Below, piece by piece: positions 20,133 to 36,195 of a stretch of DNA of 64,000 bases. Source of the DNA: Nitrospirota bacterium (lineage in GTDB: Bacteria > Nitrospirota > UBA9217). Every line of letters starts with the position of its first letter. Position 1 is the stretch's first letter. The stretch lies in contig CAVVOB010000018.1 in NCBI GenBank assembly GCA_963749655.1, positions 32,001-96,000 of the forward strand, in the 5' to 3' direction. A program made the translations under genes and the position numbers. Under the pieces are notes generated by a model. That model was not told the DNA's origin. It saw only the letters and a program-made list of their open reading frames with translations, and did no database searches.

Positions 20133-20200
20133 AAAAAATCCGTGAGATAAGGCCCACGGATCTTTATCATAAAAAATGGAGCGGGCGACGGGTTTCGAAC
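20133..20200. repeat. att site: duplicated tRNA-Gly 3' end and terminator
   Basis: 29-bp identity AAAAATGGAGCGGGCGACGGGTTTCGAAC (20172-20200 = 36115-36143), with colinear similarity over the adjacent hairpin. Confidence 0.92.
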
Positions 20201-20338
20201 GTGTAGCACCTTCTCCGAAAGACTCAAACATACGAACCCCAAAAGATAATAAATCAAAAGGTTAGCTTTGTCAATCTTGCTGTAGTGTTGCAAAAATTCA
20301 TCGGACAAGAGTCGGACAGACGGCCAGGAAAGGTAATT

Positions 20339-21082
20339 ATGCCTGCAGACGATATCAGGGTAAAGCTATCGTTTTTCAATAACATCAAAACCCGACGGAT
20401 CGTAGCAATATACGGGATCGAGGGCGCCGTTTCCATTATTAAGCTTTGGATCTATTCTGCACAGTTTGCGCAAAAGGGCGACCTTACCGACTTCGATGAA
20501 GTAGAATGGAAAGCTGCTACCGGTCGTGATAGCGATTGTATGGCGTTTGTAAACGACTTGTATAAGCCTGGTATGAATTTTCTCGATAAGGACAAAAAGG
20601 GGCGCACTTTACTGCATGATTGGAAGGAGCATCAGGGTTTTGTTTTTCACTCTGATGTGAGGTCGAGGATAGCAAGAAAGAACATAGAAAAACGATGGAA
20701 GTCCGTAAAAACAAAAAAGAAAAAAGATAATACGGATAGGATACCATCCGTATCAGAATCGAATACCATGGGTAATTCTCCTTCTCCTCTTCCTCTTCCT
20801 CTTCCTCTTCCTTCTCCAAAAGGTAGGGGGCAACGCGCATCGAAACCTGAACGCATATCGTTTGAAAAAGCGGAAACCGCCTGGAAGCAATTCGAAAAAG
20901 TGCTCACGTCGGACAACGTGAGGGTCGTGATCAAAGACGATCTGTCGCGTAAGATATTCTTCGACCTGGGCGGGAAGGATCGGATCATGGAGCTTCTCAG
21001 TCAGAATGGGGATCGTTTGAAAGCAGAGTTCGTCACGCGGTATTCGGTCTTGGAAGTTGCTCAATTCAGGGCAGCAGTTTAA
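20339..21082 (+). CDS. phage-type replication initiator (replisome-organiser-like)
   Basis: N-terminal wHTH-like region ending LHDWKEHQ, basic patch, central 11-bp periodic DNA and SPSPLPLPLPLPSP linker. Confidence 0.65.
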   Translation: MPADDIRVKLSFFNNIKTRRIVAIYGIEGAVSIIKLWIYSAQFAQKGDLTDFDEVEWKAATGRDSDCMAFVNDLYKPGMNFLDKDKKGRTLLHDWKEHQGFVFHSDVRSRIARKNIEKRWKSVKTKKKKDNTDRIPSVSESNTMGNSPSPLPLPLPLPSPKGRGQRASKPERISFEKAETAWKQFEKVLTSDNVRVVIKDDLSRKIFFDLGGKDRIMELLSQNGDRLKAEFVTRYSVLEVAQFRAAV

Positions 21083-21540
21083 TTTTATGCGGGCAGTACT
21101 TCACAAAAAACAGATTCTAAGAATATATTTTTTTATTCTCTGTTTATCGTTTTCGTCTGCGTCAGCGTTGTTCAAGGTTATTATTCTGTCGATGGTCTGT
21201 ATTGGGTGGGTCGTCTCGTGAGGGGATTTCAGTCGGAATTCAGTCGGAAGTGTACCGCATTTAATTATTAAATTGTGCGGTATCTCGTTTGAGGCGTTCA
21301 CAACTTCAATGAGTTACATGGGTTGTTTGCTCAGTATTGTGCGGTTATTTTTTATTTTGATGAGGGTGGGGCGATCCCCAGGCCCACCCCCCTTGAAAAA
21401 TATTTGATCTGTTCGCGGGAATGCCCCTCACTGTTGGTTATAAATTGGGGTGTATTCTAAAACCCCTTTCGTTATTGGTCTAAATTGTTTTTTTTGATTC
21501 TCAGTCTTGGAAAAGTGGGGGGCCGGGGGGAGCGCAAATC

Positions 21541-22518
21541 ATGATCAACATTGACTTGAAACTGGTTGAGAAACACATGATGGACCTGAGGAGACTGACA
21601 GCAGCCTCATGCAAACGGTATCTCGCCTGCATCGCGGAGTTCGTCGATTATCGCCGCCAGAATGCGCAGGACGGCGATATGAGCAAAATAACGGGGCAGG
21701 ACATTACGGACTACCTGGCATGGTGTGCGAGCCGTGGAAATGGAAACCAGCGGCGCCGTTTCAAGCTCAGCGCTCTTCAGGCTTTTTTTTTCGTCCTGAC
21801 TCATGTCGGGATCATCGCAAGCGATCCAACCGCCGATATCCGCAGGCCGAAACCCAACAATGACCTGACGCACTTTTTCACGCGCGGAGAGATCTTGAAA
21901 ATGTTCACCGGTTTCCATGTCTCCATCGAGAAAGATATCCGGGACGCGGTTTTTCTAATCATGGGGGCCATGGCGGGATTGCGCGTCAGTGAGATCACCG
22001 GGTTCAACATCGATCATGCCGCGGACGACGGAAAGTGCATCGTCCTTCGTATCGTAAATACACGCGACGGGGGGGACCGCTCTGTTTCGCTCTGGCAGGA
22101 TCCGAGCTCCGTCGTACGAATGCTGCTTCGCGCGCGCCTGGCCCAGGTCGCCGGGAAAGGCGATCCGCTCCTGACGAGTTACAGGAAAGACGGCCGCCCT
22201 CGAGGCAACCGTCGCTTGACGCACGTCGCCTGCGAGAGGCTCCTGAAAAATCTTGCGAACCATGCAGGGATCCGGAAGCCCGTGATCACACCCACCGCGC
22301 TCCGCACTACCCATATCCGGGACCTGCAGCAGATCGTCGGCTACGACACACCGGAGATCAAGAAGCGTCTCGGCTGGGTTCAACTCAACTCCGCGGCCCG
22401 TTACTTTGAGCTGGGAAATAAAGTTCGCCGGCGGTACATCGGGCTCCGGGAGTACTGGGCCGATTTCAAATCGGTACCGATCGTCGAGAGCTGTAGATCA
22501 AGGAGGATATCCCGTTGA
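21541..22518 (+). CDS. XerC-like tyrosine recombinase, paralogue 1 (degenerate catalytic set)
   Basis: SAM-like N-domain; GLRVSEI, TALR in place of HxxR, LGW, AARYF. Confidence 0.85.
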   Translation: MINIDLKLVEKHMMDLRRLTAASCKRYLACIAEFVDYRRQNAQDGDMSKITGQDITDYLAWCASRGNGNQRRRFKLSALQAFFFVLTHVGIIASDPTADIRRPKPNNDLTHFFTRGEILKMFTGFHVSIEKDIRDAVFLIMGAMAGLRVSEITGFNIDHAADDGKCIVLRIVNTRDGGDRSVSLWQDPSSVVRMLLRARLAQVAGKGDPLLTSYRKDGRPRGNRRLTHVACERLLKNLANHAGIRKPVITPTALRTTHIRDLQQIVGYDTPEIKKRLGWVQLNSAARYFELGNKVRRRYIGLREYWADFKSVPIVESCRSRRISR

Positions 22519-22943
22519 AGATAGATAGCCAGCGGCGCAACCGCGAGGCAGTAACGCGGATGTTTCAGGGGCTCGTCGCCGACTTCGGAGACGATGCAGG
22601 CGAAGGAATCATTCGACATCTCGTCTCACAAGCCGGCCGGATCAGGATGTACATCCCCGGGCCCGGCCCGGACCCGCTCTTCCGCTGCGGTCCCTGCTTC
22701 CGTCAGCTCTGGAGAAGCACGTGTGAAAAGTTCGGGCGTGAATACGGGCACACGATCATGAATAAAATAATGGCAGAACTCGGCAACCGCCGCGTACGAT
22801 TTCCTGATCATGAATTTCTTTATCGGGCGGAGCGAAACAGAAGGATACGGGATCTTCACGATGGGAATAACCGCAGCGAACTCGCCTTTCGATTTAAACT
22901 CTGTCTGCCGCAAATCCGCAACATCGTGAACGGTAATACATAA
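22515..22943 (+). CDS. Mor/C-family transcription activator-like protein
   Basis: RNRRIRDLHDGNNRSELAFRFKLCLPQIRNIV matches the Mor HTH pattern; G.RMYIP and G.RRVRFP linkers. Confidence 0.75.
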   Translation: MKIDSQRRNREAVTRMFQGLVADFGDDAGEGIIRHLVSQAGRIRMYIPGPGPDPLFRCGPCFRQLWRSTCEKFGREYGHTIMNKIMAELGNRRVRFPDHEFLYRAERNRRIRDLHDGNNRSELAFRFKLCLPQIRNIVNGNT

Positions 22944-22948
22944 CTTCC

Positions 22949-23935
22949 ATGTCGATCGATCCAGAAGACAGCATGCTGCTTGAAAAGTTTGAGAAGCATA
23001 TACGCATACTCAAAGGGCTCGTTCCATCTTCGGTTCATGCCTATATCAGGCACGTAAAAGAATTTCTTGCATGGCGTGACGGTAACGCTTTGACGGGGCC
23101 AGTCACACGCCAGGACATTGAGAATTTTCTTGAGTGGTGCTATCGACGCGGCAACGGCAATGCCACGCGGATTTCGAAGCTGACGGCCCTGCAGAATTAT
23201 TTTCGTTATCTGGCCTACTCCGGGAAGCTGCCCGACGACCCAACGGCAAACCTCCCGCGCCCGCGATCGAGCCGGCCGTTCATGCTGACGTTCTCGCACG
23301 AAGAGATATTGCGGCTGTTCGGAGCGGTCGACCTGGCGTCCGACAAAGGCCTCCGGGACGCCGTATTCCTGATCCTTGGATCCTTGGCAGGGTTCCGGGT
23401 GAGCGAGATCGTAAATTTCAAGATCGAGCAGGTCCAGGACGACGGCAAGGAGATGGATCTTGTCATACCGAAAACCAAGCGCGGCGCCGGCAGGGTTGTC
23501 TATCTCTGGAAGATGCCTGCCGATTATGTCCGCGCACTGCTTCTTACTCGTCTCAACCAGGGCGCAAAGATCGGGGATCCCCTGCTGACGGGTTATTACA
23601 AAGGCGGCCGCCCGCGCGGAAATCGACCCATGAGCACAAAGGGGCTCGACACCCTGCTTAAAACGCTCGCCAGGCGGGCAAAGATCCGCAAACCCGCTGT
23701 CAAATGCCACATGTTGCGAGGCACGCATGCAAACGACCTGCAGCACGTGAGAGGGTACACCCTTCCCGCAATAATGGAGCGCATGGGCTGGCAGAACCTC
23801 GAGACCGCGGCCCGATACCTCGTTCGGCGAGAGCGCATCCACCGTGAGTGCCGCAGTCTGCACGAATACTGGATCGACCTCGGCCGGGTATGGAGAAAGG
23901 AAGATGCTGCCGCCGATAGCAACCAAGCCGCGTGA
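22949..23935 (+). CDS. XerC-like tyrosine recombinase, paralogue 2
   Basis: FRVSEI (R), KTK (K), HMLR, MGW, AARYL (Y). Confidence 0.9.
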   Translation: MSIDPEDSMLLEKFEKHIRILKGLVPSSVHAYIRHVKEFLAWRDGNALTGPVTRQDIENFLEWCYRRGNGNATRISKLTALQNYFRYLAYSGKLPDDPTANLPRPRSSRPFMLTFSHEEILRLFGAVDLASDKGLRDAVFLILGSLAGFRVSEIVNFKIEQVQDDGKEMDLVIPKTKRGAGRVVYLWKMPADYVRALLLTRLNQGAKIGDPLLTGYYKGGRPRGNRPMSTKGLDTLLKTLARRAKIRKPAVKCHMLRGTHANDLQHVRGYTLPAIMERMGWQNLETAARYLVRRERIHRECRSLHEYWIDLGRVWRKEDAAADSNQAA

Positions 23936-24120
23936 GCACATCACGCCACGTCACGACGGTCACGCTGTGTCACGGTCCAAGGTTAAAACATCTCATCACG
24001 ATAGACTAGCAATTCACAAATTCTGATAATTTGTAAATTCGTCGGTTCAGGCTGGATACCCGGTCCACGAGCGATACAGCAGACACTCCGACGCCGCCCG
24101 CAACTCCCCTTACTTTTCTC

Positions 24121-24161
24121 TTGACAATTAGTCTTAATTTTGACTATAATTCCGATTATAG
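24121..24161 (+). promoter_or_regulatory. consensus sigma70 promoter with two overlapping palindromes
   Basis: TTGACA-18-TATAAT; TAGTC-N8-GACTA and CTATAAT-N4-ATTATAG; AAGGAGG RBS follows. Confidence 0.8.
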
Positions 24162-24173
24162 AAAGGAGGAGCC

Positions 24174-24359
24174 ATGTCGCCATTGAAGTTTGTCACCATT
24201 TCCGAATTTAAAGCCAAGGCAACGGCGATCGTAGCCGAAATCGAGAAAACCAAAAGACAGGTAGTCATCACGAAGAACGGCCTGCCGGTGGTCGTGCTCT
24301 CGCCGGCGCTGGAAGATCAATTCGAGTATCTGGAAAAGCCAAAGAAAAAATCAAAGTAA
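24174..24359 (+). CDS. Phd/YefM-family antitoxin-like protein
   Basis: VTISEFKAKATAIVAEIEKTKRQVVITKNGLPVVVL. Confidence 0.85.
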   Translation: MSPLKFVTISEFKAKATAIVAEIEKTKRQVVITKNGLPVVVLSPALEDQFEYLEKPKKKSK

Positions 24360-24389
24360 GGCCCAAGGGCCGGAAAAGGAGAAGAGACC

Positions 24390-24713
24390 ATGAAGATACA
24401 CAAGCTCAAAGAATTGGTGGAAGAACGTAAGAAGGAAAAGAATGCAGTCGCCGAATTGCTTCACGGGGTTAAAAAGACTAACACAGATCCTGATCTGGTG
24501 AATGCTATTCAACTGAGAATGCACGAAATGGATTCCTTCATCCAGGTTATGCATGCGGCCATGGAAAGCGATAACTACGACGAGAGTTTTTATAGGGAGC
24601 ACGTGAGCGGTATGACATGTTTGCTCGAGGAACGATTTAACGATATCCAAATCTTGGTCGACGCGCTCATCCAGGAAAGGACCGAGAAAACGAGAGCACT
24701 GAAACTTGCGTAG
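24390..24713 (+). CDS. hypothetical helical protein
   Basis: ORF with AAGGAG RBS; no motif recognised. Confidence 0.6.
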   Translation: MKIHKLKELVEERKKEKNAVAELLHGVKKTNTDPDLVNAIQLRMHEMDSFIQVMHAAMESDNYDESFYREHVSGMTCLLEERFNDIQILVDALIQERTEKTRALKLA

Positions 24714-24782
24714 CTATGACCGTAACGAGGGGCAATTCTTCGAAACCATAATGAGAACAATTTCTATAGGAGACTAAATCAC

Positions 24783-24983
24783 ATGAAAAAGGAAATAATC
24801 AGCGCAAAGACCATCTCGATAACCATTGCTGGAAAAAACGAGCATGACATCGATGAAACCATGGAAAGCTTTTTCGAGATAGTTCGCAGGAAAGTCAAAC
24901 GCGGCCATCATATGATGAAGCCGAAGAAGATCGGGGCAGCAAGGGGCTATTTCGATGTCGTGGAATACGCAAGACACGTTTGA
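24783..24983 (+). CDS. hypothetical protein
   Basis: 66-aa ORF with AGGAG RBS. Confidence 0.5.
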   Translation: MKKEIISAKTISITIAGKNEHDIDETMESFFEIVRRKVKRGHHMMKPKKIGAARGYFDVVEYARHV

Positions 24984-25049
24984 AGAGACGGCAACTCTTC
25001 ATATTAGTACTGCCGGCGACGAATCGCGTAAGGACAGGGAGGTCATGCC

Positions 25050-25745
25050 ATGAATATCGTGCTCGCGAATTACGGAATGCCGAAGACGGAATTTAAAGGC
25101 CTGTATGGCCCGGACAACCGACCGCTGCCGTCGATCGCAGCGGAAAAGCCGAAGCCGGTCAAGAGGGTGTACGTGGTTCGGTTTTTCTCATACGAAGCCG
25201 AGAACAGGCTGCTTAGACTCCTGGACAGTCTCAAAGGCGATCATCCGGCGCGAGATCTGATGATCATGGAACTGGGCTTCGGCACCGGGCTGCGCATTGC
25301 GGAGGTCGGCAGGCTTACCGTGGGCCACGTCCGCAACCAGGAGGACCTGACGGTTGTCTGCAAGGGCAGCAAGGAGCGCGTGCTCCCCATCAGCAAGCAC
25401 CTGCAGCGCAGGATCAAGGATTTCATCAAGCGAAAGCTGATCTGGGGCGAGAGCATCCGGGACGATGCCCCGCTTTTCGTATCGCAGATGGACGGGCCAT
25501 TGTCACGGCGCAGCATGCAGGAGATGTTCGAGAAATGGTGCAAGCGGGCCGGGCTCACGGCCGCGAACGGCAAGGCGGCCTACACGTTCCACTGCATGAG
25601 GCACACTTTCGCCATGCGGCTCAGGGAGCGCGGCTACACGATCGAGAAGGTGGCCGAGATGCTCGGGCACTCGTCAATCGAATCCACGCGGAAGTATTTC
25701 CGGATGACCATGGAAGAAATGCGCGAGGCGGTGAATTCGTTGTAA
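25050..25745 (+). CDS. short, catalytic-domain-only tyrosine recombinase
   Basis: GLRIAEV, KGSKER, HCMRHTFA, LGH, TRKYF; 231 aa; GGGAGG RBS. Confidence 0.92.
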   Translation: MNIVLANYGMPKTEFKGLYGPDNRPLPSIAAEKPKPVKRVYVVRFFSYEAENRLLRLLDSLKGDHPARDLMIMELGFGTGLRIAEVGRLTVGHVRNQEDLTVVCKGSKERVLPISKHLQRRIKDFIKRKLIWGESIRDDAPLFVSQMDGPLSRRSMQEMFEKWCKRAGLTAANGKAAYTFHCMRHTFAMRLRERGYTIEKVAEMLGHSSIESTRKYFRMTMEEMREAVNSL

Positions 25746-25821
25746 AACATGCCCGTGAAGTTCATCAAGCTGTTGCAGATGCAGACGCATAACCCGTCGG
25801 GCAAGGCAGAAGGAGGGTAAC

Positions 25822-26242: not shown

Positions 26243-26312
26243 ACCACGTCAATTATCGCAGCACGAGAATTCATAAGTTCAAGTCGCCGGTTCCCAGGGA
26301 CAAATAAATCGC

Positions 26313-26341
26313 TTGACACATGTAACCATAAAGGTTACACT
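26313..26341 (+). promoter_or_regulatory. higBA promoter with palindromic operator
   Basis: TTGACA-17-TACACT; TGTAACC-N5-GGTTACA. Confidence 0.8.
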
Positions 26342-26349
26342 ATGAATAG

Positions 26350-26628
26350 ATGATAAAATCCTTCATCCACAAGGGACTAGAAAACTTCTTTTTCGACGGT
26401 ACGAAGAAAGGGATTCTGGCCGCCCATGCTCAGAAGCTCGCGGACATTCTGGATAGACTCGATGCCTCGCAAGCCGTGGAAGACATGAGATACCCCGGTT
26501 CGGACCTGCATCCATTGAAAGGCCAACTGAAAGGTTCTTGGGCGGTAAAGGTTTCCGGGAACTGGCGGGTTGTCTTCACCTTCAAAGAAGGCAACGCCTA
26601 TGACGTGAATTATCTTGATTATCATTAA
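26350..26628 (+). CDS. higB: HigB (RelE-like) toxin
   Basis: MIKSFIHKGLE, LHPLKG, VSGNWRVVFTF, YLDYH. Confidence 0.95.
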   Translation: MIKSFIHKGLENFFFDGTKKGILAAHAQKLADILDRLDASQAVEDMRYPGSDLHPLKGQLKGSWAVKVSGNWRVVFTFKEGNAYDVNYLDYH

Positions 26629-26639
26629 GAGGTGAAAAC

Positions 26640-26933
26640 ATGAGAACGCGAAAGAGAATACCCACTCATCCGGGTGGAATTTTGAAAAGGCAGTATCTGG
26701 ATCCGTTGTCCCTGACGGTTTCTGATCTCGCCGGGACGCTGGGCGTGTCTCGCAAGACTCTTTCAAAAATCGTGAACGAACGCGGCGCCGTAACCCCCGA
26801 CATGGCGCTTCGTCTCTCCAAGGCGTTCAACACGACCCCAGAGCTGTGGCTCACCCTCCAGCGCAATTTCGATTTATGGGAAGCCGCGCATAAGTCGAAC
26901 GACTGGAAGATGATAGAGGCGATAGCAGTTTAA
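26640..26933 (+). CDS. higA: HigA antitoxin
   Basis: HPGGIL, LGVSRKTLSKIVN, TPDMALRLS, PELWLTLQ. Confidence 0.95.
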   Translation: MRTRKRIPTHPGGILKRQYLDPLSLTVSDLAGTLGVSRKTLSKIVNERGAVTPDMALRLSKAFNTTPELWLTLQRNFDLWEAAHKSNDWKMIEAIAV

Positions 26934-27009
26934 CCGGCATAACGCAATCGATGCCGAACCAGGTTCACTCTTTACCGCACCTCTAAAAACCAAAGTACGG
27001 AGGTTGAGC

Positions 27010-27537
27010 ATGAGCAAGAATCTTAGAATTGCCCTGATCGTTTTCGTTTTATTGGTGTTCTGCATGGGTTTCTATTTTTCCCCGTACCTGGCAGTCCATA
27101 ACATGAGGAACGCGGCCGCCGGCAACGATGGGGAGGCATTATCCGGGTATGTTGATTTTCCGCTGCTGCGGGAAAGTCTGAAAGCGAACTTCAACGCCAA
27201 GTTGGTGAGCGAGGCGGCAAAGAATAAGAATCCGTTCGAAACATTTGGATCCGCCCTGGCCATGGCCATGATCGGCCCGATGGTCGACGCGATGGTCACG
27301 CCGGAAAGCGTGGCCATGATGATGAAAGGGAAAAAGCCGAAACTGTCCCCACCGGGCGATAAACCGGCGGTCCAGGAGAAACCGGAAGCGGATAATACCG
27401 AAACGTCCATGGCGTACCGCGGATTGAACAAATTCGTCTTGAGCATCAGACAAAAAGACAAGACAGATGAACCGATCGAACTCATATTTCGGAGGAACAC
27501 GCTATTTTTCTGGAAGCTGTCCAGCTTGAGAATGTAA
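27010..27537 (+). CDS. DUF2939-like exported protein
   Basis: TM helix followed by SPYLAV...YVDFPLLRESLK...MVDAMVTPE...WKL. Confidence 0.75.
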   Translation: MSKNLRIALIVFVLLVFCMGFYFSPYLAVHNMRNAAAGNDGEALSGYVDFPLLRESLKANFNAKLVSEAAKNKNPFETFGSALAMAMIGPMVDAMVTPESVAMMMKGKKPKLSPPGDKPAVQEKPEADNTETSMAYRGLNKFVLSIRQKDKTDEPIELIFRRNTLFFWKLSSLRM

Positions 27538-27571
27538 ACTGGGCCCGGGCGCCCGCACGGAGGGCGAAGAG

Positions 27572-29086: not shown

Positions 29087-29494
29087 ATGATGAAAGAACT
29101 CAGAGAACTCATGAGTAAATTCCTGGAACTGCAAGTACGTTTCGCCGAAACATCTGCTGTGAATGATCATAAGGTCGCTCAGTTGGAGGCGCGAATTGCC
29201 GAACTCACCCCCCTGGCATCTTACGGGCGGCAGTTTCACGGCCATTTGGTCGAAAAATTCATACAGAGCAAGAAGTTATTGGACGAAGTTGCATCCGGGC
29301 TGGAGGAGACCTTAAAAAAGACGGTCGCAGAATGGCCGATCTACATTTTGCAAAAGGAGGTTGAGCTTCTCGAGAAGCGCGTATCCGAGAAAGTCATTGT
29401 ACGTGCAGGGGCCAGCCTTTTACGCCCCAAAACCACGATCGAAAGGCAACTTGTGCGAACGAAGCGAAAAAATCCCCTTCGTTCGAAGCGCTGA
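29087..29494 (+). CDS. coiled-coil protein, possibly capsid-scaffold-like
   Basis: AAGGAG RBS; heptad pattern VAQLEARIAELTPLASYGRQF; function is inference. Confidence 0.5.
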   Translation: MMKELRELMSKFLELQVRFAETSAVNDHKVAQLEARIAELTPLASYGRQFHGHLVEKFIQSKKLLDEVASGLEETLKKTVAEWPIYILQKEVELLEKRVSEKVIVRAGASLLRPKTTIERQLVRTKRKNPLRSKR

Positions 29495-29522
29495 GACAAA
29501 TAATTCGTAAAGGAGTTCCGTT

Positions 29523-29828
29523 ATGAATGACCGGAAAGTCGTCGCGGCTCTGCCCGCCATTACAGACTCACATCTCATGACGTATCTTGAGAGCCAAGGC
29601 GTCCCGTTCAAGGCACAGATACTGGAAATCGAATGTCCAGGCAAGGTAACGGTGGGCTTCATAGTTCCTGATGATGCAAGGACAATGAAGCTCATCACTC
29701 AATATGAATCGAACTGCTTGACGCCTGTCATGGATTATGTTGCGGCAGAAAAGCGTATTAAAGATGTCATCATGCCGTTGGTTCGGTCGGCCAAAATGGG
29801 CAGATGCGTCCCCGTAAGAAATTTATGA
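29523..29828 (+). CDS. DUF5659-like small phage protein
   Basis: TDSHLMTYL..G...V.F..Y.....V.DY....KRIK pattern; AAGGAG RBS. Confidence 0.5.
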   Translation: MNDRKVVAALPAITDSHLMTYLESQGVPFKAQILEIECPGKVTVGFIVPDDARTMKLITQYESNCLTPVMDYVAAEKRIKDVIMPLVRSAKMGRCVPVRNL

Positions 29829-29988
29829 ATTGGAGGGGGCGAGTGATGTTCTGTGGCTCCTAACCATAGCGAGCCTCACAGGGGCTTGCCGAGCCTAAAA
29901 GCTACCTCCTGTTCCTCCGTCGGCCGCCAATCCTAAACGGAGGTTGGTTCGGCCGGCTCCTGTGACGCTCGACGGTCAAGACGAACGT

Positions 29989-30180
29989 ATGATAAAAGAC
30001 TGGCTGAAAGATATCTGTTTCGACGGTGAAAGCATCCTGGTCCAGGGCACAGCAGCCGAGGTCCCGGCCGGTAAAACGCTGACTTTATATAAAAGCGACG
30101 GAGTATCCGTGCTCCAGACCTTCAACCTCAGCGAAGCCACCAGAACCGCACGCGCATTCATTGGAAGGACTCCGGCATGA
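29989..30180 (+). CDS. small phage-virion-like protein
   Basis: TLTLYKSDGVSVLQTFNL; ATGA overlap with the next ORF; start uncertain (29944 or 29989). Confidence 0.45.
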   Translation: MIKDWLKDICFDGESILVQGTAAEVPAGKTLTLYKSDGVSVLQTFNLSEATRTARAFIGRTPA

Positions 30181-30539
30181 GCCTTATAGGGGAAGGCCTC
30201 GGCGGCCGCCAGCTCATTCTTCAAGGCCTCGGCGAATCAGTGCAATCCACGTCCGGATCGATCCAATCCCGCCAGCAGTCCAGCGGAACCGGCTACGTCG
30301 GCGACCAGATCGTTATTCCCCAGGGCGGCTTCGGCACTTTCCGTGGCGCATTCGGCGGCCGGTCGATATCGGTTCCAAAGCCCGTCATCATCGGAGTCGG
30401 TCATTCCATACAGAACCGCCAGCTATCCGACGCTGATGGAACATTCCAGGGGATGGGTTTAGGGGTAGGCGACTTCACCGAAGACGAAGTGATCGCGATG
30501 CTAATGATGGCGGCAGCAGAAGACCACGCTTTATTTTAG
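30177..30539 (+). CDS. Gly-rich hypothetical phage protein
   Basis: LIGEGLG/LILQGLG repeat; acidic-hydrophobic C-terminus. Confidence 0.55.
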   Translation: MSLIGEGLGGRQLILQGLGESVQSTSGSIQSRQQSSGTGYVGDQIVIPQGGFGTFRGAFGGRSISVPKPVIIGVGHSIQNRQLSDADGTFQGMGLGVGDFTEDEVIAMLMMAAAEDHALF

Positions 30540-30548
30540 GAGAGAAAA

Positions 30549-31055
30549 ATGAACAATCCAAAATTCGAACAAGCAGTCAAGTCATTCCGCCAGGCCGTAG
30601 AAGCCGAGGGTGTGCGCCAGGGCATGAAAAAGAAGAGCCTTGACAGATTGGCTGAACTCCAACGTAAAGAAGCCGAGCAACGTGACATCTTCGCCTCGGT
30701 CGAAAAAGAGACTGTTGTAATCGCGGGACGATGTGCGCTTGGGGATTACCCAGAAAGAGAGCTCGACTCCGCAGTTTCACGAAGGAGAGACGCGGCGGAC
30801 GCCTTGGCGTCCACGCAAATGATGATCAAATGCATTGAGCAAGACCTTCCCAAGTTGGAACCCGATCCAAGAAAAGATCCGCCGCTTGAGGAGGCTCGGT
30901 CTTCTTTTTTTAAGGAGGTGTTCGAGATCACACGCGCTGAATTACTCAGCACGCTCCCGCAACTGCATTTCGCTTTCGTTGCACGATGCATGGCTACCGG
31001 CATACTGAACCCCACCAGCGATATTGACTGGCACCTCTTTTTGAGGACGCTCTGA
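30549..31055 (+). CDS. hypothetical coiled-coil protein (may continue to ~31122 by frameshift)
   Basis: AGGAG RBS; 168-aa ORF. Confidence 0.6.
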   Translation: MNNPKFEQAVKSFRQAVEAEGVRQGMKKKSLDRLAELQRKEAEQRDIFASVEKETVVIAGRCALGDYPERELDSAVSRRRDAADALASTQMMIKCIEQDLPKLEPDPRKDPPLEEARSSFFKEVFEITRAELLSTLPQLHFAFVARCMATGILNPTSDIDWHLFLRTL

Positions 31056-31135
31056 GTTCCCGGCTCCGACCCGCGAAGAACGCGAGCGCATCGCTGCACA
31101 AATCCAGAATCTTATTCGTTGATGGAGGGCCCTTA

Positions 31136-31525
31136 ATGCTGATGCCAAAGCTATCTGTGCGTGAGCGTCTTCTGTACAAGCTAAAAAAGTATTCACACCT
31201 TCGTTCTGCCATGCACCAGACAGCGGATGGCGCTGCACGATTCAACCGTCTTGTTGAGCACGACGTTAACTTGCAGGCATGGCTGAGCGCCGAGCAACAT
31301 TCCATTGCTCAAGAGATCATTCGCAATACGCAGTTTTACTACTTCATGAAACAGAGGTCATCAGCGTCAATCTTCGAAATGTATGAGCATCTGGGCAGAA
31401 ATGGCTTTGTCACGCTAGAACAAGCTGCCACGGCTTTCAATGTGCCGCGCAATGAAATGCGAGAACGGATAAAAGAGTATCCAGCGCTTTTTGTAGGCTT
31501 CAACATCACTGTGACTGACGATTGA
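31136..31525 (+). CDS. hypothetical protein with C-terminal HTH-like motif
   Basis: VTLEQAATAFNVPRNEMRERIK; GGAGG RBS. Confidence 0.55.
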   Translation: MLMPKLSVRERLLYKLKKYSHLRSAMHQTADGAARFNRLVEHDVNLQAWLSAEQHSIAQEIIRNTQFYYFMKQRSSASIFEMYEHLGRNGFVTLEQAATAFNVPRNEMRERIKEYPALFVGFNITVTDD

Positions 31526-31537
31526 AAAAGGGATGTC

Positions 31538-32065
31538 ATGCTTGATATTAAAGTTTCCATAAACGGAGACAGGGTTGTACTGGAAAATCTTCAAGGGATC
31601 GCAGAGAGACTTCCCGAAGCCGTGGAACGCGGACTCACGCGATCCGCTGTAGGGATCCACGAGGCGGCCAAACGCTGGCTGTCCGGCGCCGGAGGGCAGA
31701 CGCGCTCTTATAGCCGCAAGTGGAGCGCTGGCGGAGAGGTCCGCCAGAAGAAAACATACGGCGCCGCAGCTGGAGGATATCCAGTTCCGGTCCGCACCGG
31801 GCACCTTCGGCAAGCGCTTGATTGGCTCGCACCGGGACAATCCAAAACCGGCGACACAGGCACGTTTGTTGCCGGCAGCGGCGAGGTCGTCATATTCGAT
31901 TCCGCGTCCTATGCCGACGCTGTCTTTCACGGTAAAGGTTCGTCAGCTTCATACGGTCCCCGCGACGCGCTCCAGGACGCCTTTGAGCTCTTCAATCACG
32001 GAGACAATATTCGCCGGTTGATTTCTGAGGAAATCCAGAAGGAGATCAATTCCCATGGGAAATAA
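31538..32065 (+). CDS. HK97 gp10 / Mu gpG-like neck or tail-completion protein
   Basis: PVPVRTGHLRQAL, SASYADAVFHG, GPRDAL; directly precedes the tape measure gene. Confidence 0.65.
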   Translation: MLDIKVSINGDRVVLENLQGIAERLPEAVERGLTRSAVGIHEAAKRWLSGAGGQTRSYSRKWSAGGEVRQKKTYGAAAGGYPVPVRTGHLRQALDWLAPGQSKTGDTGTFVAGSGEVVIFDSASYADAVFHGKGSSASYGPRDALQDAFELFNHGDNIRRLISEEIQKEINSHGK

Positions 32066-34007
32066 AATACAGATCAGCATAGAAGCTTATGAAAAATTCA
32101 AGGCTATGTTTTCCGAGCTCGATAAAGAGCTGAAGGGCGTGACAGAAGGCCACAAGAAAGTCGCTTCTGACAGCAGCTCCTCGTTCGGGAAAATCAAGGA
32201 AAACTGGCTGGCCATCACCGCAGCCGTGGCGGCAGCCACCGTCGCTGTCAACAAGTCCCTGGATTACATGGCCGAAGGGGCCAAGGCGCAGCAGGCCGAA
32301 GCCTCGTTTCGCCAGGTCGCCACGGCAGCAGGCGAGAGCGCCGACGAGATCCTTGAGGCGATGAAACGCGCTTCCAACGGTACCGTCGACGATTCTGACA
32401 TCATGCAAAAAGCGGTAAAGGGTATGCTTCAAGGACTATCGGGCGAACAGATGGTGAACATAATGGAGGCCGCGAGAGTGGCTGCACGGACGTCTGGCGA
32501 GGACGTGGGCACAGCATTCGAAAAGATCACCGACGCGATCGCAAACCAGATGCCTCGGGCACTGCAGCAGATGGGGCTCATCACGAAGGAACAACTGCAA
32601 ACGCTCAACGAAGAGATTGCCTCGGGCCAGACGAACGTGGACTTGTATTCGCTCGCCATGGCCAACGCCTCGGAACAACTTTCGAAATTTGGAGAATTAC
32701 AGACGAATAATGCAGAAAGGATGCAAAAATGGAAAGCAATGTTCAGTGAGCTGAAAGAGACGATCGGGACGGGTCTCTTGTGGCTCGGGGATAATGTCAT
32801 CGAGCCGTTCGTCGTGGTCGTAGAAAAAGCAGGGGCCAAGCTTGCACAGATTCTTACCAATATCGGCTCTATATGGAGCTGGGTAAAAAGTGGTTTCTCC
32901 GGAGGTATGAGCAGTCTCTTTTCCCAACTGGACGAGAATCAAAAACTCTATGATGAACAGGCCAGTGAGATAGATTCAAAACACAGCACCACATCAACGG
33001 CGGGATCTTCGTCGCTCTCTCAATTCAACGCAACAACACCTACAACAAGCGGCAGCACCGCCGATCCGAAAAAAGAGCTTGCCGCGTGGAAGGCTGCTCG
33101 CGAGGCAGAGATCAACTATGAACTCGGACTCGTTAAATTGGCCGAAAAGGAAGGCTCCATGTCCAAGGCCGAAGCGGCCGAGAAAAGCATTGCACTCTAT
33201 GAAGAGTTACTCGAAACACAGAAAAAATACCTCGCCAACATCAATCTTCTGACCGATCCGACTGGATGGAACAAACAGCAACAGGAAATACTGAAAACAA
33301 AAGAAACCCTCTTGGAATTGAATAACGAAATGAAAGAACAAACCGGCACATTGGGAGAGGGCTTCAGCCAGGGGATTGCGGAATACTTAAAAAACGTGAA
33401 GACCGCTTTCCAGCAGGGCAAAACCCTCGCCGATGACACCGCCAAGGCGATGGAACAGTCGTTCTCAGATTTATTCTTCGACGCCATGACCGGTGACATG
33501 AAGGACCTCAGTAGCTATCTCACATCTTTCCTGAATTCCATCGCCCGATCCCTGTCAAACAGAATCGGAGAGAACATAACCGACGGTATCCTCGGATCCA
33601 TATTTGGCGGCTCCTCGACAACTAGCGGCGCATCTCTCACGAATGCAACTACAGGGGCGTACGACATGGTCCCTACGGCTCACTCTGGGGGCTTGATCCT
33701 GCACAGCGGCGGGTATGTCCCCCGGTTTCACGTCGGCGGGCTCAGCTCCGATGAGCGGCCGGCCATTCTGCAGACCGGAGAGGGCGTGCTGTCCCGAAGA
33801 GGAATGGCGGCCTTCGACGCCATGAACAACGGCCAGGCGGGCGGCGGGAACGTGAACGTTGCCGTAAATATCGACAACAAGTCAAGCCAACAGGTAAACG
33901 CGCGTCAGACCGGATCTCAATTCGACGGGAAAAAGTGGGTTGTTTCGATGGTTCTTGAAGACTTGAATAATTATGGTCCGCTTCATCATGCGTTGAAAGC
34001 AAAATAA
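32055..34007 (+). CDS. phage tail tape measure protein
   Basis: 650 aa, Ala-rich and helical; C-terminal HSGG..PRFHVGGL..DERPAILQTGEGVLSR typical of tape measure C-termini. Confidence 0.88.
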   Translation: MGNKIQISIEAYEKFKAMFSELDKELKGVTEGHKKVASDSSSSFGKIKENWLAITAAVAAATVAVNKSLDYMAEGAKAQQAEASFRQVATAAGESADEILEAMKRASNGTVDDSDIMQKAVKGMLQGLSGEQMVNIMEAARVAARTSGEDVGTAFEKITDAIANQMPRALQQMGLITKEQLQTLNEEIASGQTNVDLYSLAMANASEQLSKFGELQTNNAERMQKWKAMFSELKETIGTGLLWLGDNVIEPFVVVVEKAGAKLAQILTNIGSIWSWVKSGFSGGMSSLFSQLDENQKLYDEQASEIDSKHSTTSTAGSSSLSQFNATTPTTSGSTADPKKELAAWKAAREAEINYELGLVKLAEKEGSMSKAEAAEKSIALYEELLETQKKYLANINLLTDPTGWNKQQQEILKTKETLLELNNEMKEQTGTLGEGFSQGIAEYLKNVKTAFQQGKTLADDTAKAMEQSFSDLFFDAMTGDMKDLSSYLTSFLNSIARSLSNRIGENITDGILGSIFGGSSTTSGASLTNATTGAYDMVPTAHSGGLILHSGGYVPRFHVGGLSSDERPAILQTGEGVLSRRGMAAFDAMNNGQAGGGNVNVAVNIDNKSSQQVNARQTGSQFDGKKWVVSMVLEDLNNYGPLHHALKAK

Positions 34008-34044
34008 AAAACTAATCGAAAGGCCACATAGGAGGGATCCATCC

Positions 34045-34731
34045 ATGGCGGGCGATTTTAACAAACCAACGGGCAGTTCACTGCGGACAATGTTCATGCA
34101 GGAGATCAGGGACATAATCAAAGACGTCGCGCTTATGGTCTACGTCGGCACGTCGAACATTCCCGACGGGCTCATCCGGTATAATGCATCGACCAAGATG
34201 TTTGAAAAATATACCGCCGGCACGACATCGTGGGCCGCGCTCGATCTCTCAGCCATGAATGCCGGACAGGTGGATGGGTTCGACGCAAATGTAACGCCGG
34301 GCAACAATCTCGTGGCCGTGGCGAGCGCCAGCGGCAAGCTCGCGGCCGGATGGGGCGGGGCTGCTTCCTCGCTCGCGACGCTCAACGCGAGCGCGAAGGT
34401 TGTGCAGGATCCGGCGAGTGCTGGGTCCGGCAATGGACTTGATTCCGATAAACTCGATGGAAAACATTGGGTTCAAGTTCTAAGCGGGTCACAGATTATA
34501 TCCGCCGGAGGTACTGCTGCTTTTGGGTTGAGCTATGGTTCTGGAGATCACACTTTTTATAGGTTTTCTACATACTGTAGTGGAAACTATCCAACTGTGA
34601 TGGGATACGACCCTACCGTTTCTTATGCCTATGTCAAAAAAGGATATACGGGACAGCAAGACAATTTCTTAATTAAAAACAACACTGGCTCACAGCAGAC
34701 ATTTTATTATCAAGTCTTTATTTGGATGTAG
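34045..34731 (+). CDS. tail-fibre / receptor-binding-like protein
   Basis: NAGQVDG and GSGNGLDSDKLDGKH fibre motifs; AT-richer, beta-rich C-terminus. Confidence 0.65.
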   Translation: MAGDFNKPTGSSLRTMFMQEIRDIIKDVALMVYVGTSNIPDGLIRYNASTKMFEKYTAGTTSWAALDLSAMNAGQVDGFDANVTPGNNLVAVASASGKLAAGWGGAASSLATLNASAKVVQDPASAGSGNGLDSDKLDGKHWVQVLSGSQIISAGGTAAFGLSYGSGDHTFYRFSTYCSGNYPTVMGYDPTVSYAYVKKGYTGQQDNFLIKNNTGSQQTFYYQVFIWM

Positions 34732-34781
34732 TCTGACACTACTGAAACTCAGAACGATCATGGTCTGCATCTCGGCGGGAC

Positions 34782-34850
34782 GGCGATCTGCTCACCCTGG
34801 ATGAGGCCGCGGGACCGCTGGGAGTAAAAGACCATTGGGGAGTGCGCTGA
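34782..34850 (+). pseudogene. excisionase-like HTH remnant
   Basis: Translates GDLLTLDEAAGPLGVKDHWGVR*; no in-frame start seen; directly upstream of int. Confidence 0.4.
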
Positions 34851-34882
34851 ATCACGGGCTCGCTATGCATACAGATTCTGCC

Positions 34883-34912
34883 TTGACTTCCATAACTGAC
34901 ATATCCTACAAT
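34883..34912 (+). promoter_or_regulatory. putative integrase promoter
   Basis: TTGACT-18-TACAAT, then GGGGAG RBS and ATG at 34937. Confidence 0.55.
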
Positions 34913-34936
34913 CTCCCTAAACGGGGGAGCCTGTGC

Positions 34937-36110
34937 ATGTCAGGTAAAGTACGGACACGAGAAAAGTGTCCACGCTGCAGCGGGGCGTTTAAGATCATCG
35001 AGGAAGTGGACATCTTCTGCCCGCCGTGCGGGACCAAGCCGGAATCTTTCTTCATTCGCCTCTACTGGCAGGGGAAAGAACACCGCATTGCGAAGGATCG
35101 GGACAATCATACCCTTGATAGCTACCGTCGTGCTCATCGGATGCTTGAAAAAATCCGCAGCGAGATAGACGGGCGGACCTTCGACCTCTCCGATTACCTG
35201 CCGAAAGAAATAGATCAATTCCGCGGTCATACCCTTCTCGCCAAAATGGTATGACTCGAAGGTTGCCCTGAACCGGGCGCCCTCTCACCTGCGCGAAGTC
35301 AAGCGATACGTCGATAAGTTGTTCATCCCCTTCTTCGGTGCCCTGGACTGCCGGGAGATCCGGACCTTTCACATCGAGGATTTTTTCAACACGCTCACCG
35401 GGAGCGACAAGACGAAAAAGAACGTCATGGTCATGCTTAAAAACTTCTGTCACTGGCTTCAGGACCGGGACATCCTGCTTCGCTTGCCGAAGTTCCCCGA
35501 GATATCGCCGGCGCTGCCGGTCATCATCTGGACCACAAAGGAAGTGCAGCTCAAGGTCTTGGCGGCCGTTCCCGAGAAGGACCGGGCTATATTCCAGTTT
35601 GCCATCTATCACCCGATCCGGCCGGGCGAACTCCGGGCGCTCCGGGTCAAGGATTTTCTGATGGATCAGGGTATGGTGCAGATCAGCCGGGCTTTCTCTC
35701 TCAAAGAGGAGCGATCGAGGAAGAACAAGAAGCCCTATTACCTTCCCCTGTCCGCGACGTTCGACCACTCAGTGCTCAAGGGGAAGCTGCCGGAGGCTTT
35801 TGTGTTCCTGAACGCAATAGGAAGGCCCTACACGGCGTCAGGACTGCGGAAGATATGGCAGAGGGCCTGCAAGAACGCCAAGGTGCCGTATATCAATTTC
35901 TACAACGCTACGCGCCATTCTATCGCTTCGCAGGCACTCAATGCAGGGGTATCACTGGACAGGATATCCGCAGCGCTCGGGCATAGCACTCTTGAGATAA
36001 CGCGCCGGTATGCGAGCTTGAATGTGCAAAGATTCCGTGACGTGGTGGATGGACTCGGACAAGTCTCGGACAAACAAAAAATCCGTGAGATAAACTCCAC
36101 GGATTTCTGA
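34937..36110 (+). CDS. int: tRNA-targeting tyrosine integrase with N-terminal Zn ribbon; frameshift near 35245
   Basis: CPRC...CPPC; IRPGELRAL, YNATRHS, LGH, TRRY; removing one A from GCCAAAATGG joins the two ORFs. Confidence 0.9.
36076..36106 (-). terminator. tRNA-Gly terminator supplied by the element
   Basis: Minus strand AAATCCGTG-N10-CACGGATTT-TTT. Confidence 0.75.
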
Positions 36111-36119
36111 AGGTAAAAA

Positions 36120-36195
36120 TGGAGCGGGCGACGGGTTTCGAACCCGCGACCCCAAGCTTGGGAAGCTTGTACTCTACCAGCTGAGCTACGCCCGC
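36120..36195 (-). tRNA. tRNA-Gly (CCC)
   Basis: GCGGGCGTAGCTCAGCTGGTAGAGTA-CAAGC-TTCCCAA-GCTTG-GGGTCGCGGGTTCGAAACCCGTCGCCCGCTCCA; 76-nt cloverleaf with encoded CCA. Confidence 0.98.

Follow-up and report, generated by a model that had tools for sequence, protein, structure and literature searches.

A family of tRNA-gene islands in Nitrospirota bacteria as possible satellites of long-tailed phages

Results and Discussion

Boundaries and composition of the island

The window, i.e. the whole stretch of 64,000 nucleotides analysed here, contains a 15.9-kb island in a tRNA-Gly(CCC) gene (36120-36195, minus strand), flanked by an exact 29-nt repeat of the tRNA 3' end. This core (20172-20200 and 36115-36143) belongs to a longer direct repeat of 68 nt (20133-20200 versus 36076-36143, 84% identity). 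attL (20133-20200) combines a copy of the tRNA-Gly 3' end with the original tRNA terminator hairpin, and attR together with the tRNA gene occupies 36076-36195 on the minus strand. A preliminary description had placed both att repeats at 20172 and 36143, which are indeed the outer edges of the exact core. The island has a G+C content of 51.6%, against 56.5% and 56.9% in its flanks, and a coding share of 84%.

The source genome (G000) is a metagenome-assembled genome of 39 contigs, 86.6% complete and 5.8% contaminated, and figures of this kind would leave room for an artefact of assembly or binning in which pieces of different elements were joined. We regard such an artefact as very improbable, given that the island is embedded in a contig of 243 kb, its two att repeats both correspond to the tRNA, and the same core gene order recurs in two other assemblies (G242 and G200, described below).

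Replication, recombinase and cargo genes

All genes of the island described here lie on the plus strand. The replication initiator that had been recognised previously was confirmed as a replication-initiator-like gene (rep, 20339-21082; phrog_9474, 3.7e-9), which is a core gene of the element family. It is followed by tyrosine recombinase A, of the XerC/D type (21541-22518; PF00589, 1.8e-10) and with homologues in the G242 and G200 elements, by a Mor-family late transcription activator (22515-22943; PF08765, 9.5e-11, and phrog_836/532) with 49-64% identity in the same two elements, and by tyrosine recombinase B (22949-23935), a paralogue of recombinase A (44%). Recombinase-Mor pairs are also present upstream of late genes in related phages. 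Further downstream there are a 107-aa core-family protein of unassigned function (24390-24713; 48% identity in G242 and 40% in G200) and a short tyrosine recombinase C, also a core family (25050-25745; PF00589, 9.4e-34).

The variable cargo includes the HigBA pair already noted (26350-26933), made up of the toxin HigB (26350-26628; PF05015, 4.7e-23) and the antitoxin HigA (26640-26933; TIGR02607, 2.8e-32), in place of which the other elements hold a ParE/RHH or Phd-like gene. The next gene encodes a DUF2939 protein (27004-27537; PF11159, 1.9e-27) that corresponds to the PADLOC candidate defence gene PDC-S55 (PDLC05037, 6.4e-47). This gene, the Mor activator and the three recombinases starting at 21541, 22949 and 25050 were absent from the preliminary description. 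The family-defining core gene (27572-28699) encodes a mostly helical protein of 375 aa, with 38% identity in G242 and a copy in G200 that is split by an in-frame stop. Only 11 relatives of this protein were found among 1.84 billion representatives, and its AF2 model (pLDDT 75.5) gave no fold match.

At the right end, the tyrosine integrase (34938-36110) is present as described earlier but is not intact, given that its arm-binding part (34938-35254) and its catalytic part (35319-36110) lie in two different frames. The frame change was located between 35214 and 35252, and the A-run at 35243-35246 is most likely its site.

A block of late genes with a tape measure gene

The compact module previously proposed at 29087-34731 was recovered, with all genes co-oriented and gaps of -11 to 115 nt; no sigma-70-like promoter was detected before it. 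Its largest gene (32055-34007) encodes a lambda-type tail tape measure protein of 650 aa, which proved to be intact, as had been claimed: it is 41-49% identical to phage tape measure proteins of 628-721 aa over 94-100% of the ORF length, PF09718 is present in 14 of its 20 best matches, and of 69 columns without variation in 16 relatives it retains 64.

The start of the tape measure gene is overlapped by 11 nt by the gene at 31538-32065, which had been called gp10/gpG-like and which, judging from its relatives and a predicted structure, probably encodes a tail completion protein of the HK97 gp10/lambda gpZ type. The window protein itself has no Pfam match, and the gp10 part of the earlier assignment finds support in 7 of 22 relatives that match PF04883 weakly (best E 0.0019); all 29 columns invariant in 21 relatives are retained. 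The best fold match of its model among 48,161 chains, and the only one with a Z of at least 5, was 9mu2_P, a neck entry of SaPI1 (Z 5.6, rmsd 4.0, 98 of 109 residues aligned), a Z that is below the informative level of the tool and was obtained with a poor query model (pLDDT 61). In the 80alpha/SaPI1 neck structure (bioRxiv 10.1101/2024.12.10.627806), the tail completion protein binds three tape measure N-termini and the DNA end, and makes few contacts with the outer neck proteins.

Two other assignments of the preliminary description are weakly supported. The fibre-like protein (34045-34731) has phage relatives for its N-terminal 89 aa, which resemble ORFs that in 2 of 96 loci follow the tape measure gene at a distance of 7-8.5 kb downstream; no phage relatives were found for the remainder, and the protein has no match in isolated phages. 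The scaffold-like coiled-coil protein (29087-29494) is a homologue of the C-terminal third of a phrog_16951 phage protein, the gene for which sits upstream of decoration and capsid-like genes.

The remaining genes of the block encode a DUF5659 protein (29523-29828; PF18903, 4.6e-5, at the curated cut-off) that is also present in G200, two small proteins of 78 and 120 aa without assigned function (29944-30539), the longer of which resembles through its residues 8-44 the C-terminus of a 283-aa protein of G242, a helical core-family protein of 168 aa (30549-31055) that adjoins the tail genes in all three elements, and a 129-aa protein (31136-31525) of unassigned function with no family match in Pfam, PHROGs or NCBIfam. 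No tail assembly chaperone was recognised in the element, and when the 168-aa family was compared by hhalign with ORFs at the chaperone position in six phages, the probability was 0.13.

Related islands in two other genera

Comparable islands were found in two further genera of this bacterial family, in other tRNA genes and with other integrases. The G242 element (L195) has 13,823 bp and perfect 45-nt repeats at tRNA-Arg(CCT), while the G200 element (L205) has 15,170 bp and 63-nt repeats (98%) at tRNA-Gly(GCC), and the integrases of the three elements are only 22-28% identical pairwise. Common to all three are rep (58% identity to the window copy in G242 and 48% in G200), recombinases A, B and C, Mor, the 107-aa, 375-aa and 168-aa families and the tape measure gene, with variable gene content between these core genes; searches of the three elements gave no head, portal, terminase or tube gene. 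The recurrent, headless and syntenic gene set that the preliminary description had proposed to look for therefore exists, and because the G242 and G200 islands share the core and are headless as well, the island is not a unique deletion of a full prophage.

The gp10-like gene is present in two of the three elements (it was not found in G200, even by profile search) and the fibre-like gene only in the window element, so that receptor specificity, one of the functions said to be retained, is not a trait of the family. Only three members of the family were found, and their distribution is sporadic: close relatives of rep occur in 3 of 64 genomes of the bacterial family and in 3 of 401 genomes of the phylum, counting G000, and among the 14 genomes of the same genus neither a close rep relative nor the gp10-like gene was found.

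Relatives in full phages

The phage-like genes of the element have similar counterparts in full, Mor-bearing, long-tailed metagenomic phages, where they are separated by kilobases. In such phages, as exemplified by L146 (an IMG/VR contig of 41,961 nt), five element genes have homologues arranged as in the element: recombinase (35-41%), Mor (36%), scaffold-like (35%), gp10-like (46%) and tape measure (40% over part). In none of the 96 and 92 loci inspected did the gp10-like gene sit next to the tape measure gene. Where both occur (10 of 92 loci), tape measure matches start 4.5-7.7 kb downstream of the gp10-like gene, and in 17 of 92 loci the scaffold-like gene is found upstream of the gp10-like gene at a distance of 2-5 kb. 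Unlike the element, these phages are complete, with TerL, portal, decoration, capsid-like and tail tip genes, and in L146 the TerL, portal, decoration and capsid-like genes occupy stretches that are absent from the element. Conversely, searches through the full length of five phage records, and of IMG/VR, found neither rep nor the 375-aa family.

These comparisons bear on the possibility that the three islands are remnants of temperate phages in a decaying prophage lineage, devoid of head, packaging and most tail genes. Such decay would agree with the frameshifted integrase of the window, the in-frame stop in the G200 375-aa gene, the variable content between core genes and the existence of full-phage relatives for every phage-like gene. 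We nevertheless consider it improbable, since the same reduced set is found at three tRNAs with three integrases and perfect or near-perfect repeats, there are no gene fragments, spacing is tight with 84% coding, invariant positions are kept in the tape measure and gp10-like proteins, and the rep and 375-aa genes were not found in the five phage records or in IMG/VR.

Absence of head and packaging genes and of a helper

Among 24-26 ORFs scanned with Pfam, PHROGs and NCBIfam, none matched a capsid, portal, terminase, tube or lysis family. When proteins from 17 related phage loci served as tblastn queries against the three elements, they recovered only the recombinase, Mor, scaffold-like, gp10-like and tape measure genes and the fibre N-terminus, and not a single fragment of a terminase, portal, capsid or tube gene. 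As judged from sequence comparison, the island appears to be free of these genes, none of which the preliminary description had recognised either. No small terminase and no cos or pac site was identified.

Searches for a helper in G000, G242 (91% complete) and G200 (100% complete) gave no match to L146-type TerL, capsid-like and 499-aa tail proteins, phrog_2 (TerL) or PF05065 (HK97 capsid), and blastp with 4,315 ORFs of 96 loci detected no phage gene cluster elsewhere in G000. The helper prophage for which a search of the same genome had been suggested was thus not found at 86.6% completeness, nor was any helper phage, excision product or packaging signal.

Given the absence of head and packaging genes and the presence of the element's own tape measure and neck partner, the island most likely spreads by borrowing the remaining particle components from a helper phage. 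The tail genes could alternatively be weapons captured by a self-replicating island and not serve its own transfer, with tape measure, tail completion and scaffold-like proteins poisoning the tail and head assembly of an infecting Mor-bearing phage. The PDC-S55 gene (6.4e-47), the toxin-antitoxin pairs in all three elements and the failure to find either a packaging gene or a helper point in this direction, and interference with tail assembly by island genes is known from the Tai systems (PMC11364771) and from Rta of PLE11 (PMC12987554). A decoy, however, needs neither a full-length tape measure keeping 64 of 69 invariant positions, nor a scaffold homologue, nor an element sized for a small capsid, and we judge a purely defensive island to be unlikely, if somewhat less so than prophage decay. 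Moreover, PLEs combine defence with their own transfer, and the satellite and defence readings are therefore not mutually exclusive.

Comparison with known satellites

Like P4, the element is integrated, of similar size and has its own replication gene, and its Mor-like and scaffold-like genes would take the roles that in P4 belong to delta, a homologue of the late activator Ogr of the helper P2, and to a capsid-size protein. The differences are that Sid of P4 is an external scaffold, that its replication protein is a primase-helicase, and that P4 is not known to encode a tail protein; scans of the element ORFs with Pfam, PHROGs and NCBIfam gave none of its marker families. PICIs, SaPIs and cf-PICIs are likewise integrated, and are helper-induced islands, and the SaPI protein CpmB, a homologue of the scaffold, gives rise to small capsids; the element yielded no small terminase, Ppi, Stl-type master repressor, HK97 capsid, portal or protease. 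Some cf-PICIs are drawn with putative tape measure genes in one published figure (PMC12987554, Extended Data Fig. 10).

Among the closest parallels are satellites with a tape measure gene of their own. The Vibrio cholerae PLEs carry genes for a tape measure protein, a chaperone for it and a baseplate hub, and have been shown experimentally to assemble chimeric tails (PMC12987554). PLE1, PLE4 and PLE11 are integrated satellites of about 18 kb that have no capsid or tube genes and place their own tape measure in helper-made tails, and capsid remodelling and defence are further functions of PLEs (PMC12987554). The host phylum differs from that of the present element. The tape measure gene is paired here with a probable tail completion protein, neither a chaperone nor a baseplate hub being recognised. 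Further differences are the element's tyrosine integrase at a tRNA gene, its three additional recombinases and its Mor-type activator. The small EPIP satellites of Mycolicibacterium aichiense are reported to have a tape measure gene and a scaffolding protein, with a tail length different from that of the helper (PMC12822802, preprint). EPIPs are 11 kb long and were isolated as particles, and no counterpart was found here to their serine integrase, small terminase, head-to-tail adaptor or stopper. The idea of chimeric tails with a satellite-encoded tape measure is thus not new, being established for PLEs, with a tape measure gene also reported for EPIPs; the established satellite systems listed in the preliminary description included neither precedent.

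A possible mode of transfer

On balance, and by a modest measure, we favour the view that the members of this family of 14-16-kb tRNA-gene elements are helper-dependent satellites that build chimeric tails, with long-tailed, Mor-bearing phages as hosts of the missing parts. The recurrent headless set with a tape measure gene speaks for the virion-remodelling satellite of the preliminary description, as do the sporadic distribution, the lack of phage-gene debris, the conserved tape measure and gp10-like proteins, the wide separation of their genes in full phages, the tail completion reading, the precedent of the PLEs and the deviating G+C content. The missing helper and packaging signal, the frameshifted integrase of the window copy, the in-frame stop in the G200 375-aa gene, the absence of the gp10-like gene from G200, the poor gp10-like model, the lack of a recognised chaperone, the small number of members and the lack of a receptor trait common to the family speak against it. 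The four tyrosine recombinases in one element have no explanation if it is a satellite, and we count them against this reading.

If the elements are satellites, infection by the helper would lead to excision and to replication with the element's own initiator. The Mor-type activator would turn on the late block at 29087-34731 and perhaps helper late genes too, comparable to P4 delta acting with P2, and the scaffold-derived protein may bias the helper capsid to a size fitting 14-16 kb. The tape measure and tail completion proteins of the element would replace those of the helper inside the tail tube, and the resulting particles would consist of helper-made shells and satellite-made tail-lumen proteins, as in Vibrio PLE11, while the toxin-antitoxin pair and the PDC-S55 gene may be cargo that benefits the host.

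Organization of the tRNA-Gly(CCC) element

The element lies in a 243-kb contig of an assembly of 39 contigs that is 86.6% complete. The genome probably belongs to the Nitrospirota, its contigs being matched by the host-like flanks of a locus labelled Nitrospirae. At its right end, the last 24 nt of a tRNA-Gly(CCC) gene (36120-36195, minus strand) form part of a 29-nt core (36115-36143) that is repeated exactly at 20172-20200, and similarity between the two end repeats extends over 68 nt (84%), covering a terminator hairpin on each side. The 15.9 kb between the repeats are 84% coding and have a G+C content of 51.6%, whereas the two flanks have 56.5% and 56.9%, and every gene of the element is on the plus strand. 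An empty-site comparison gave no usable DNA match to the left flank (18200-20140) in 14 same-genus genomes.

The left-hand genes encode a replication-initiator-like protein (20339, hereafter rep), tyrosine recombinase A (21541), a Mor-family activator (22515), tyrosine recombinase B (22949), a 107-aa ORF (24390) and a short recombinase C (25050), and are followed by higB and higA (26350 and 26640), a DUF2939 gene (27004-27537) and a gene for a 375-aa protein with no assigned function (27572). The late block (29087-34731) comes next, after a 387-nt gap that contains a terminator-like hairpin but no sigma-70-like promoter; nothing promoter-like was seen before 29087, and a perfect sigma-70 consensus (TTGACA, 18 nt, TATAAT) is present at 24121-24150, upstream of the 107-aa gene. 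The only candidate for a replication origin downstream of rep is an 11-nt unit repeated 2.4 times together with an AT-rich palindrome, too weak a signal for an origin to be assigned.

In PADLOC the DUF2939 protein matches PDC-S55, a candidate single-gene defence system, at 6.4e-47, and it is probably anti-phage cargo of the element. An alternative to be weighed here is that the whole element is a defence island, in which the phage-like proteins described below would act as decoys; we consider this explanation rather improbable, though somewhat less so than prophage decay (see below).

The integrase gene occupies two frames (34938-35254 and 35319-36110). In the assembly sequence the switch is located within 35214-35252, the A-run at 35243-35246 being its most likely place, and an integrase relative at another locus (L088) is encoded in a single frame. 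CGGACA-type words, noticed by eye, recur within the element close to its two ends (20296-20320 and 36050-36075) and are candidate arm-type integrase binding sites. Outside the window, the same genome also contains a mini-island of about 3.5 kb abutting a tRNA-Val(CAC) gene (contig C28, 234195-237739), which carries an integrase fragment with 91% protein identity to residues 74-259 of the catalytic part of the window integrase. Its far end has a 35-nt match (97%) to window positions 20284-20318, CGGACA-type words included, and between the fragment and this match there are two unrelated minus-strand ORFs of 231 and 506 aa.

The element belongs to a recurrent family

A search with the gp10-like protein (31538-32065) of 401 genomes of the phylum led to a related element in G242, a genome of the same family and another genus. 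This element of 13,823 bp is bounded by perfect 45-nt repeats at a tRNA-Arg(CCT) gene. It shares with the window element rep (58%), recombinases A (51%) and C, Mor (49%), the gp10-like gene (51%) and members of the 107-aa, 375-aa (38%) and 168-aa (34%) families. It also carries a ParE/RHH toxin-antitoxin pair, two small ORFs, an excisionase-like gene, an integrase that is intact, and a tape measure of 527 aa that is of another type and matches four tape measure PHROGs (best E 7.5e-17). A 48-nt unit in three tandem copies was also observed there, between a 95-aa and a 283-aa gene (L195 8613-8756).

Searching all 64 genomes of the family with rep identified a further element in G200, which represents a third genus. 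It measures 15,170 bp, has 63-nt repeats at a tRNA-Gly(GCC) gene and shares the same left-hand core, including both recombinases flanking Mor (62% and 64% identity), followed by a 375-aa family gene interrupted by one in-frame stop codon (L205 11434-11518), a DUF5659 gene, a 168-aa family gene and a 527-aa tape measure. It also encodes a 312-aa phrog_16951 protein, the N-terminal two thirds of which are 43-53% identical to the corresponding phage gene. A gp10-like gene did not turn up in this element, a profile search included.

The 107-aa gene and recombinase C make up a pair that follows recombinase B in the window (24390-25745) and is placed at the far end, before rep, in G242 (L195 15126-16167) and G200 (L205 16368-17801), a shift that reflects block rearrangement within the family. 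RIT elements consist of three adjacent, usually overlapping tyrosine recombinase genes that form a unit. We rejected this class for the present element, in which Mor stands between recombinases A and B and a further 1.1 kb with two other ORFs lies before recombinase C; G242 has only two of the three recombinases.

Close relatives of rep are present in three of the 401 sampled phylum genomes, the window's own genome counted, and in none of the 14 same-genus genomes; the remaining six matches are 29-35% identical, and the two examined (G139 and G218) lack the core. The integrases of the three elements are only 22-28% identical to each other. Since members of the family are 27-64% identical in protein, synonymous sites are saturated.

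The recurrence of the gene set that the preliminary description had proposed to look for was found: the G242 and G200 elements share the core and have no match to capsid, portal, terminase or tube families, so that the window element is not a unique deletion but a member of a recurrent, mobile, headless family. One broken gene each in two members (the window integrase and the 375-aa gene of G200) might be taken as the mark of a decaying prophage lineage; beside the recurrence of the core in three genera, we regard such decay as unlikely.

An intact tape measure protein overlapped by a gp10-like gene

Homology indicates that the 650-aa ORF at 32055-34007 is a genuine tape measure protein, intact as originally described. 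It is 41-49% identical over nearly its full length to proteins of 628-721 aa, the nearest of which are found in Nitrospirota-labelled records, and although its own match to PF09718 falls under the cut-off (20.4 bits against 23, E 5.6e-4), this domain is carried by 14 of its 20 best homologues. Single-protein scans of viral and genome contigs found no relatives, whereas alignment-based scans did: residues 1-648 are 41-48% identical to ORFs of 622-701 aa at L001, L002 and L019-L023. At the six loci with the closest relatives the tape measure gene lies in a lambda-like tail module. ORFs of about 320 and 146-174 aa precede it, small ORFs follow, and at four of the six loci an ORF of 1,294-1,605 aa is located 1.4-1.8 kb further downstream; none of these tail-module neighbours is present in the window. 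The window protein retains 64 of the 69 positions that are invariant among its 16 relatives.

The preceding ORF (31538-32065, 175 aa) overlaps the start of the tape measure gene by 11 nt and probably encodes a tail completion protein of the type of HK97 gp10, lambda gpZ, SPP1 gp16.1 and 80alpha gp51, according to several lines of evidence that are each weak alone. Its 59 relatives, at 39-67% identity and including P0054, P0055, P0057 and P0062 at 58-65%, have no Pfam assignment, and PF04883 (HK97 gp10-like) is weakly matched by seven of 22 aligned members (best E 0.0019). An AF2 model of poor quality (pLDDT 61) contains a helix (26-49), a hairpin (58-71) and a second helix (157-174); Foldseek returned nothing for it at E up to 0.001, and in a VIA-wide comparison of this same low-scoring model the top match was 9mu2_P, from a SaPI1 neck entry (Z 5.6), the sole one with Z of at least 5 among 48,161 chains. 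This chain has 109 residues, as many as the stretch 7-115 modelled for gp51 in the preprint cited below, and by this count chain P may be gp51. For the "gp10" in the name "gp10/gpG-like" there are the weak PF04883 matches of relatives and the fold match to a chain of a neck entry; the window protein itself has no match to PF04883 at E up to 1. Comparison of its profile with PDB sequences gave no match or chance level only, and tblastn against 50,697 isolated phage records gave none. The protein retains all 29 positions invariant among its 21 relatives, and at two loci (L042 and L146) its homologue follows a capsid-like gene and an ORF of 143-149 aa and precedes tail genes.

Kizziah et al. (bioRxiv 10.1101/2024.12.10.627806) give HK97 gp10 as the tail completion protein. 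In phage 80alpha, according to the same preprint, the tail completion protein binds three copies of the tape measure at their N-termini and also the end of the DNA, and both proteins have few contacts with the outer neck proteins.

Gene content relative to full phages

Gene order was compared at 92 loci with gp10-like genes, several of which are the same contig twice. A scaffold-like gene lies 2-5 kb upstream of the gp10-like gene at 17 of the 92 loci and tape measure matches 4.5-7.7 kb downstream at 10; about 9-10 kb upstream there is a Mor gene at seven loci and a recombinase gene at five to six. At none of the 92 are the gp10-like and tape measure genes adjacent. The full Mor-bearing phage L146 has the order recombinase, Mor, TerL, portal, phrog_16951, decoration, capsid-like, gp10-like, endolysin, tail genes, tape measure and gpJ-like. 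Judged from these gene orders, the elements contain homologues of a scattered subset of the genes of one phage type, packed together, and rep and the 375-aa protein are absent from the five whole phage records searched. Two further relatives, of the tape measure (P0012, 43%) and of the gp10-like protein (P0063, 57%), are each recorded on a single 4,561-nt contig; this contig is too short for the 4-6 kb spacing seen in full phages, and the two may be a fourth case of these genes lying close together.

Among the other late-block proteins, the 135-aa ORF at 29087-29494 matches the C-terminal third of the phage phrog_16951 gene, which lies upstream of decoration and capsid-like genes, where a protease or scaffold gene would be expected from gene order. 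Of the fibre-like ORF (34045-34731), only the first 89 residues have counterparts, in ORFs a long way downstream of the tape measure gene at two of 96 loci; tblastn of the whole protein against the 50,697 isolated phage records found nothing. The 168-aa family compares with chaperone-position ORFs of six phages at an hhalign probability of 0.13 and has no PDB sequence relative, its profile and that of the 375-aa family giving no match or chance level only. The 375-aa protein is predicted to be mostly helical (pLDDT 75.5); Foldseek against PDB and BFVD returned nothing at E up to 0.001, and the VIA-wide comparison gave helical-repeat matches only (Z up to 6.8) and no capsid. Eleven of 1.84 billion representatives belong to its family, and a search of IMG/VR gave no member. 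The closest relatives include P0113 and P0115 (51-54% identity), of which P0113 falls in unnamed Protein Atlas clusters only (scores up to 0.90).

Head, packaging and helper genes

When 24-26 ORFs of the element were scanned against Pfam, PHROGs and NCBIfam, no terminase, HK97-fold capsid, portal or protease family was detected, and a tblastn search of the three elements with proteins from 17 phage loci gave no fragment of capsid, portal, terminase or tube genes, in agreement with the original view of the island as headless. No packaging gene or site, no sign of excision and no chaperone were recognised either. A helper prophage, sought in this genome as the preliminary description had suggested, did not appear: searches with L146-type TerL, capsid-like and 499-aa proteins, phrog_2 and PF05065 found nothing in the window's genome, G242 or G200 (controls were positive in 6/14 and 3/14 genomes), and blastp with 4,315 ORFs from the loci revealed no phage cluster elsewhere in the window's genome.

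Comparison with known satellites

The premise that tail-encoding satellites are unknown is contradicted by published work. According to PMC12987554, the products that PLEs build into chimeric tails are a tape measure, the chaperone belonging to it and a baseplate hub, all encoded by the satellite, and putative tape measure genes are drawn there in PLE-like elements and cf-PICIs; EPIP satellites of 11 kb are also reported to have a tape measure (PMC12822802). PLE-type satellites carry their own tape measure without tube or sheath genes, which is also true of the window, G242 and G200 elements, but no family match (Pfam, PHROGs, NCBIfam) to a PLE-type chaperone and baseplate hub was found next to the tape measure. 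PICIs and SaPIs differ by having a small terminase or packaging-redirection gene and a master repressor beside the integrase, neither of which was found in the element by the Pfam, PHROGs and NCBIfam scans, where the HigA antitoxin is the only repressor-like HTH protein. The HK97-fold capsid, portal and protease of capsid-forming PICIs are likewise absent by family scans and tblastn, as are the alpha primase-helicase, Sid and Psu of P4 by Pfam, PHROGs and NCBIfam, the replication gene being of the phrog_9474 initiator type. A tailocin was rejected, the element having no tube, sheath or baseplate genes.

A proposed strategy of tail-lumen replacement

The reading that we favour over the defence and decay explanations, and hold to be slightly more probable than not, is that the element is a helper-dependent satellite supplying tail-lumen proteins. 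A more specific proposal, which we put forward tentatively and hold to be less probable, is that the inner tail chain, formed by the tape measure and a DNA-end-capping tail completion protein, is swapped as one translationally coupled unit and combined with a Mor-type activator and a cut-down scaffold, as a hybrid of P4-like and PLE-like features that would have evolved independently in an uncultured lineage, probably of Nitrospirota. With the swap, satellite particles would have a tail length and a route of DNA delivery of their own; the activator would switch on helper late genes and the scaffold would produce small heads. In 80alpha the inner chain has few contacts with the outer neck and tube proteins, so a unit of this kind could be compatible with the tails of various helpers.

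A satellite tape measure in helper tails has been shown only recently, in one Vibrio system. The gene pair with its 11-nt overlap offers a defined system for studying recognition between tape measure and tail completion protein, and the family cautions against writing off the orphan tape measure genes of small islands as remnants of prophages. If our reading is true, the family would escape current satellite finders, which rely on P4, PICI, cf-PICI and PLE markers, and an unrelated family from an uncultured environmental lineage would have arrived at a similar strategy with another partner, using a tail completion protein where PLEs use a chaperone and a baseplate hub, which would suggest that tail-lumen swapping is a general strategy of satellites.
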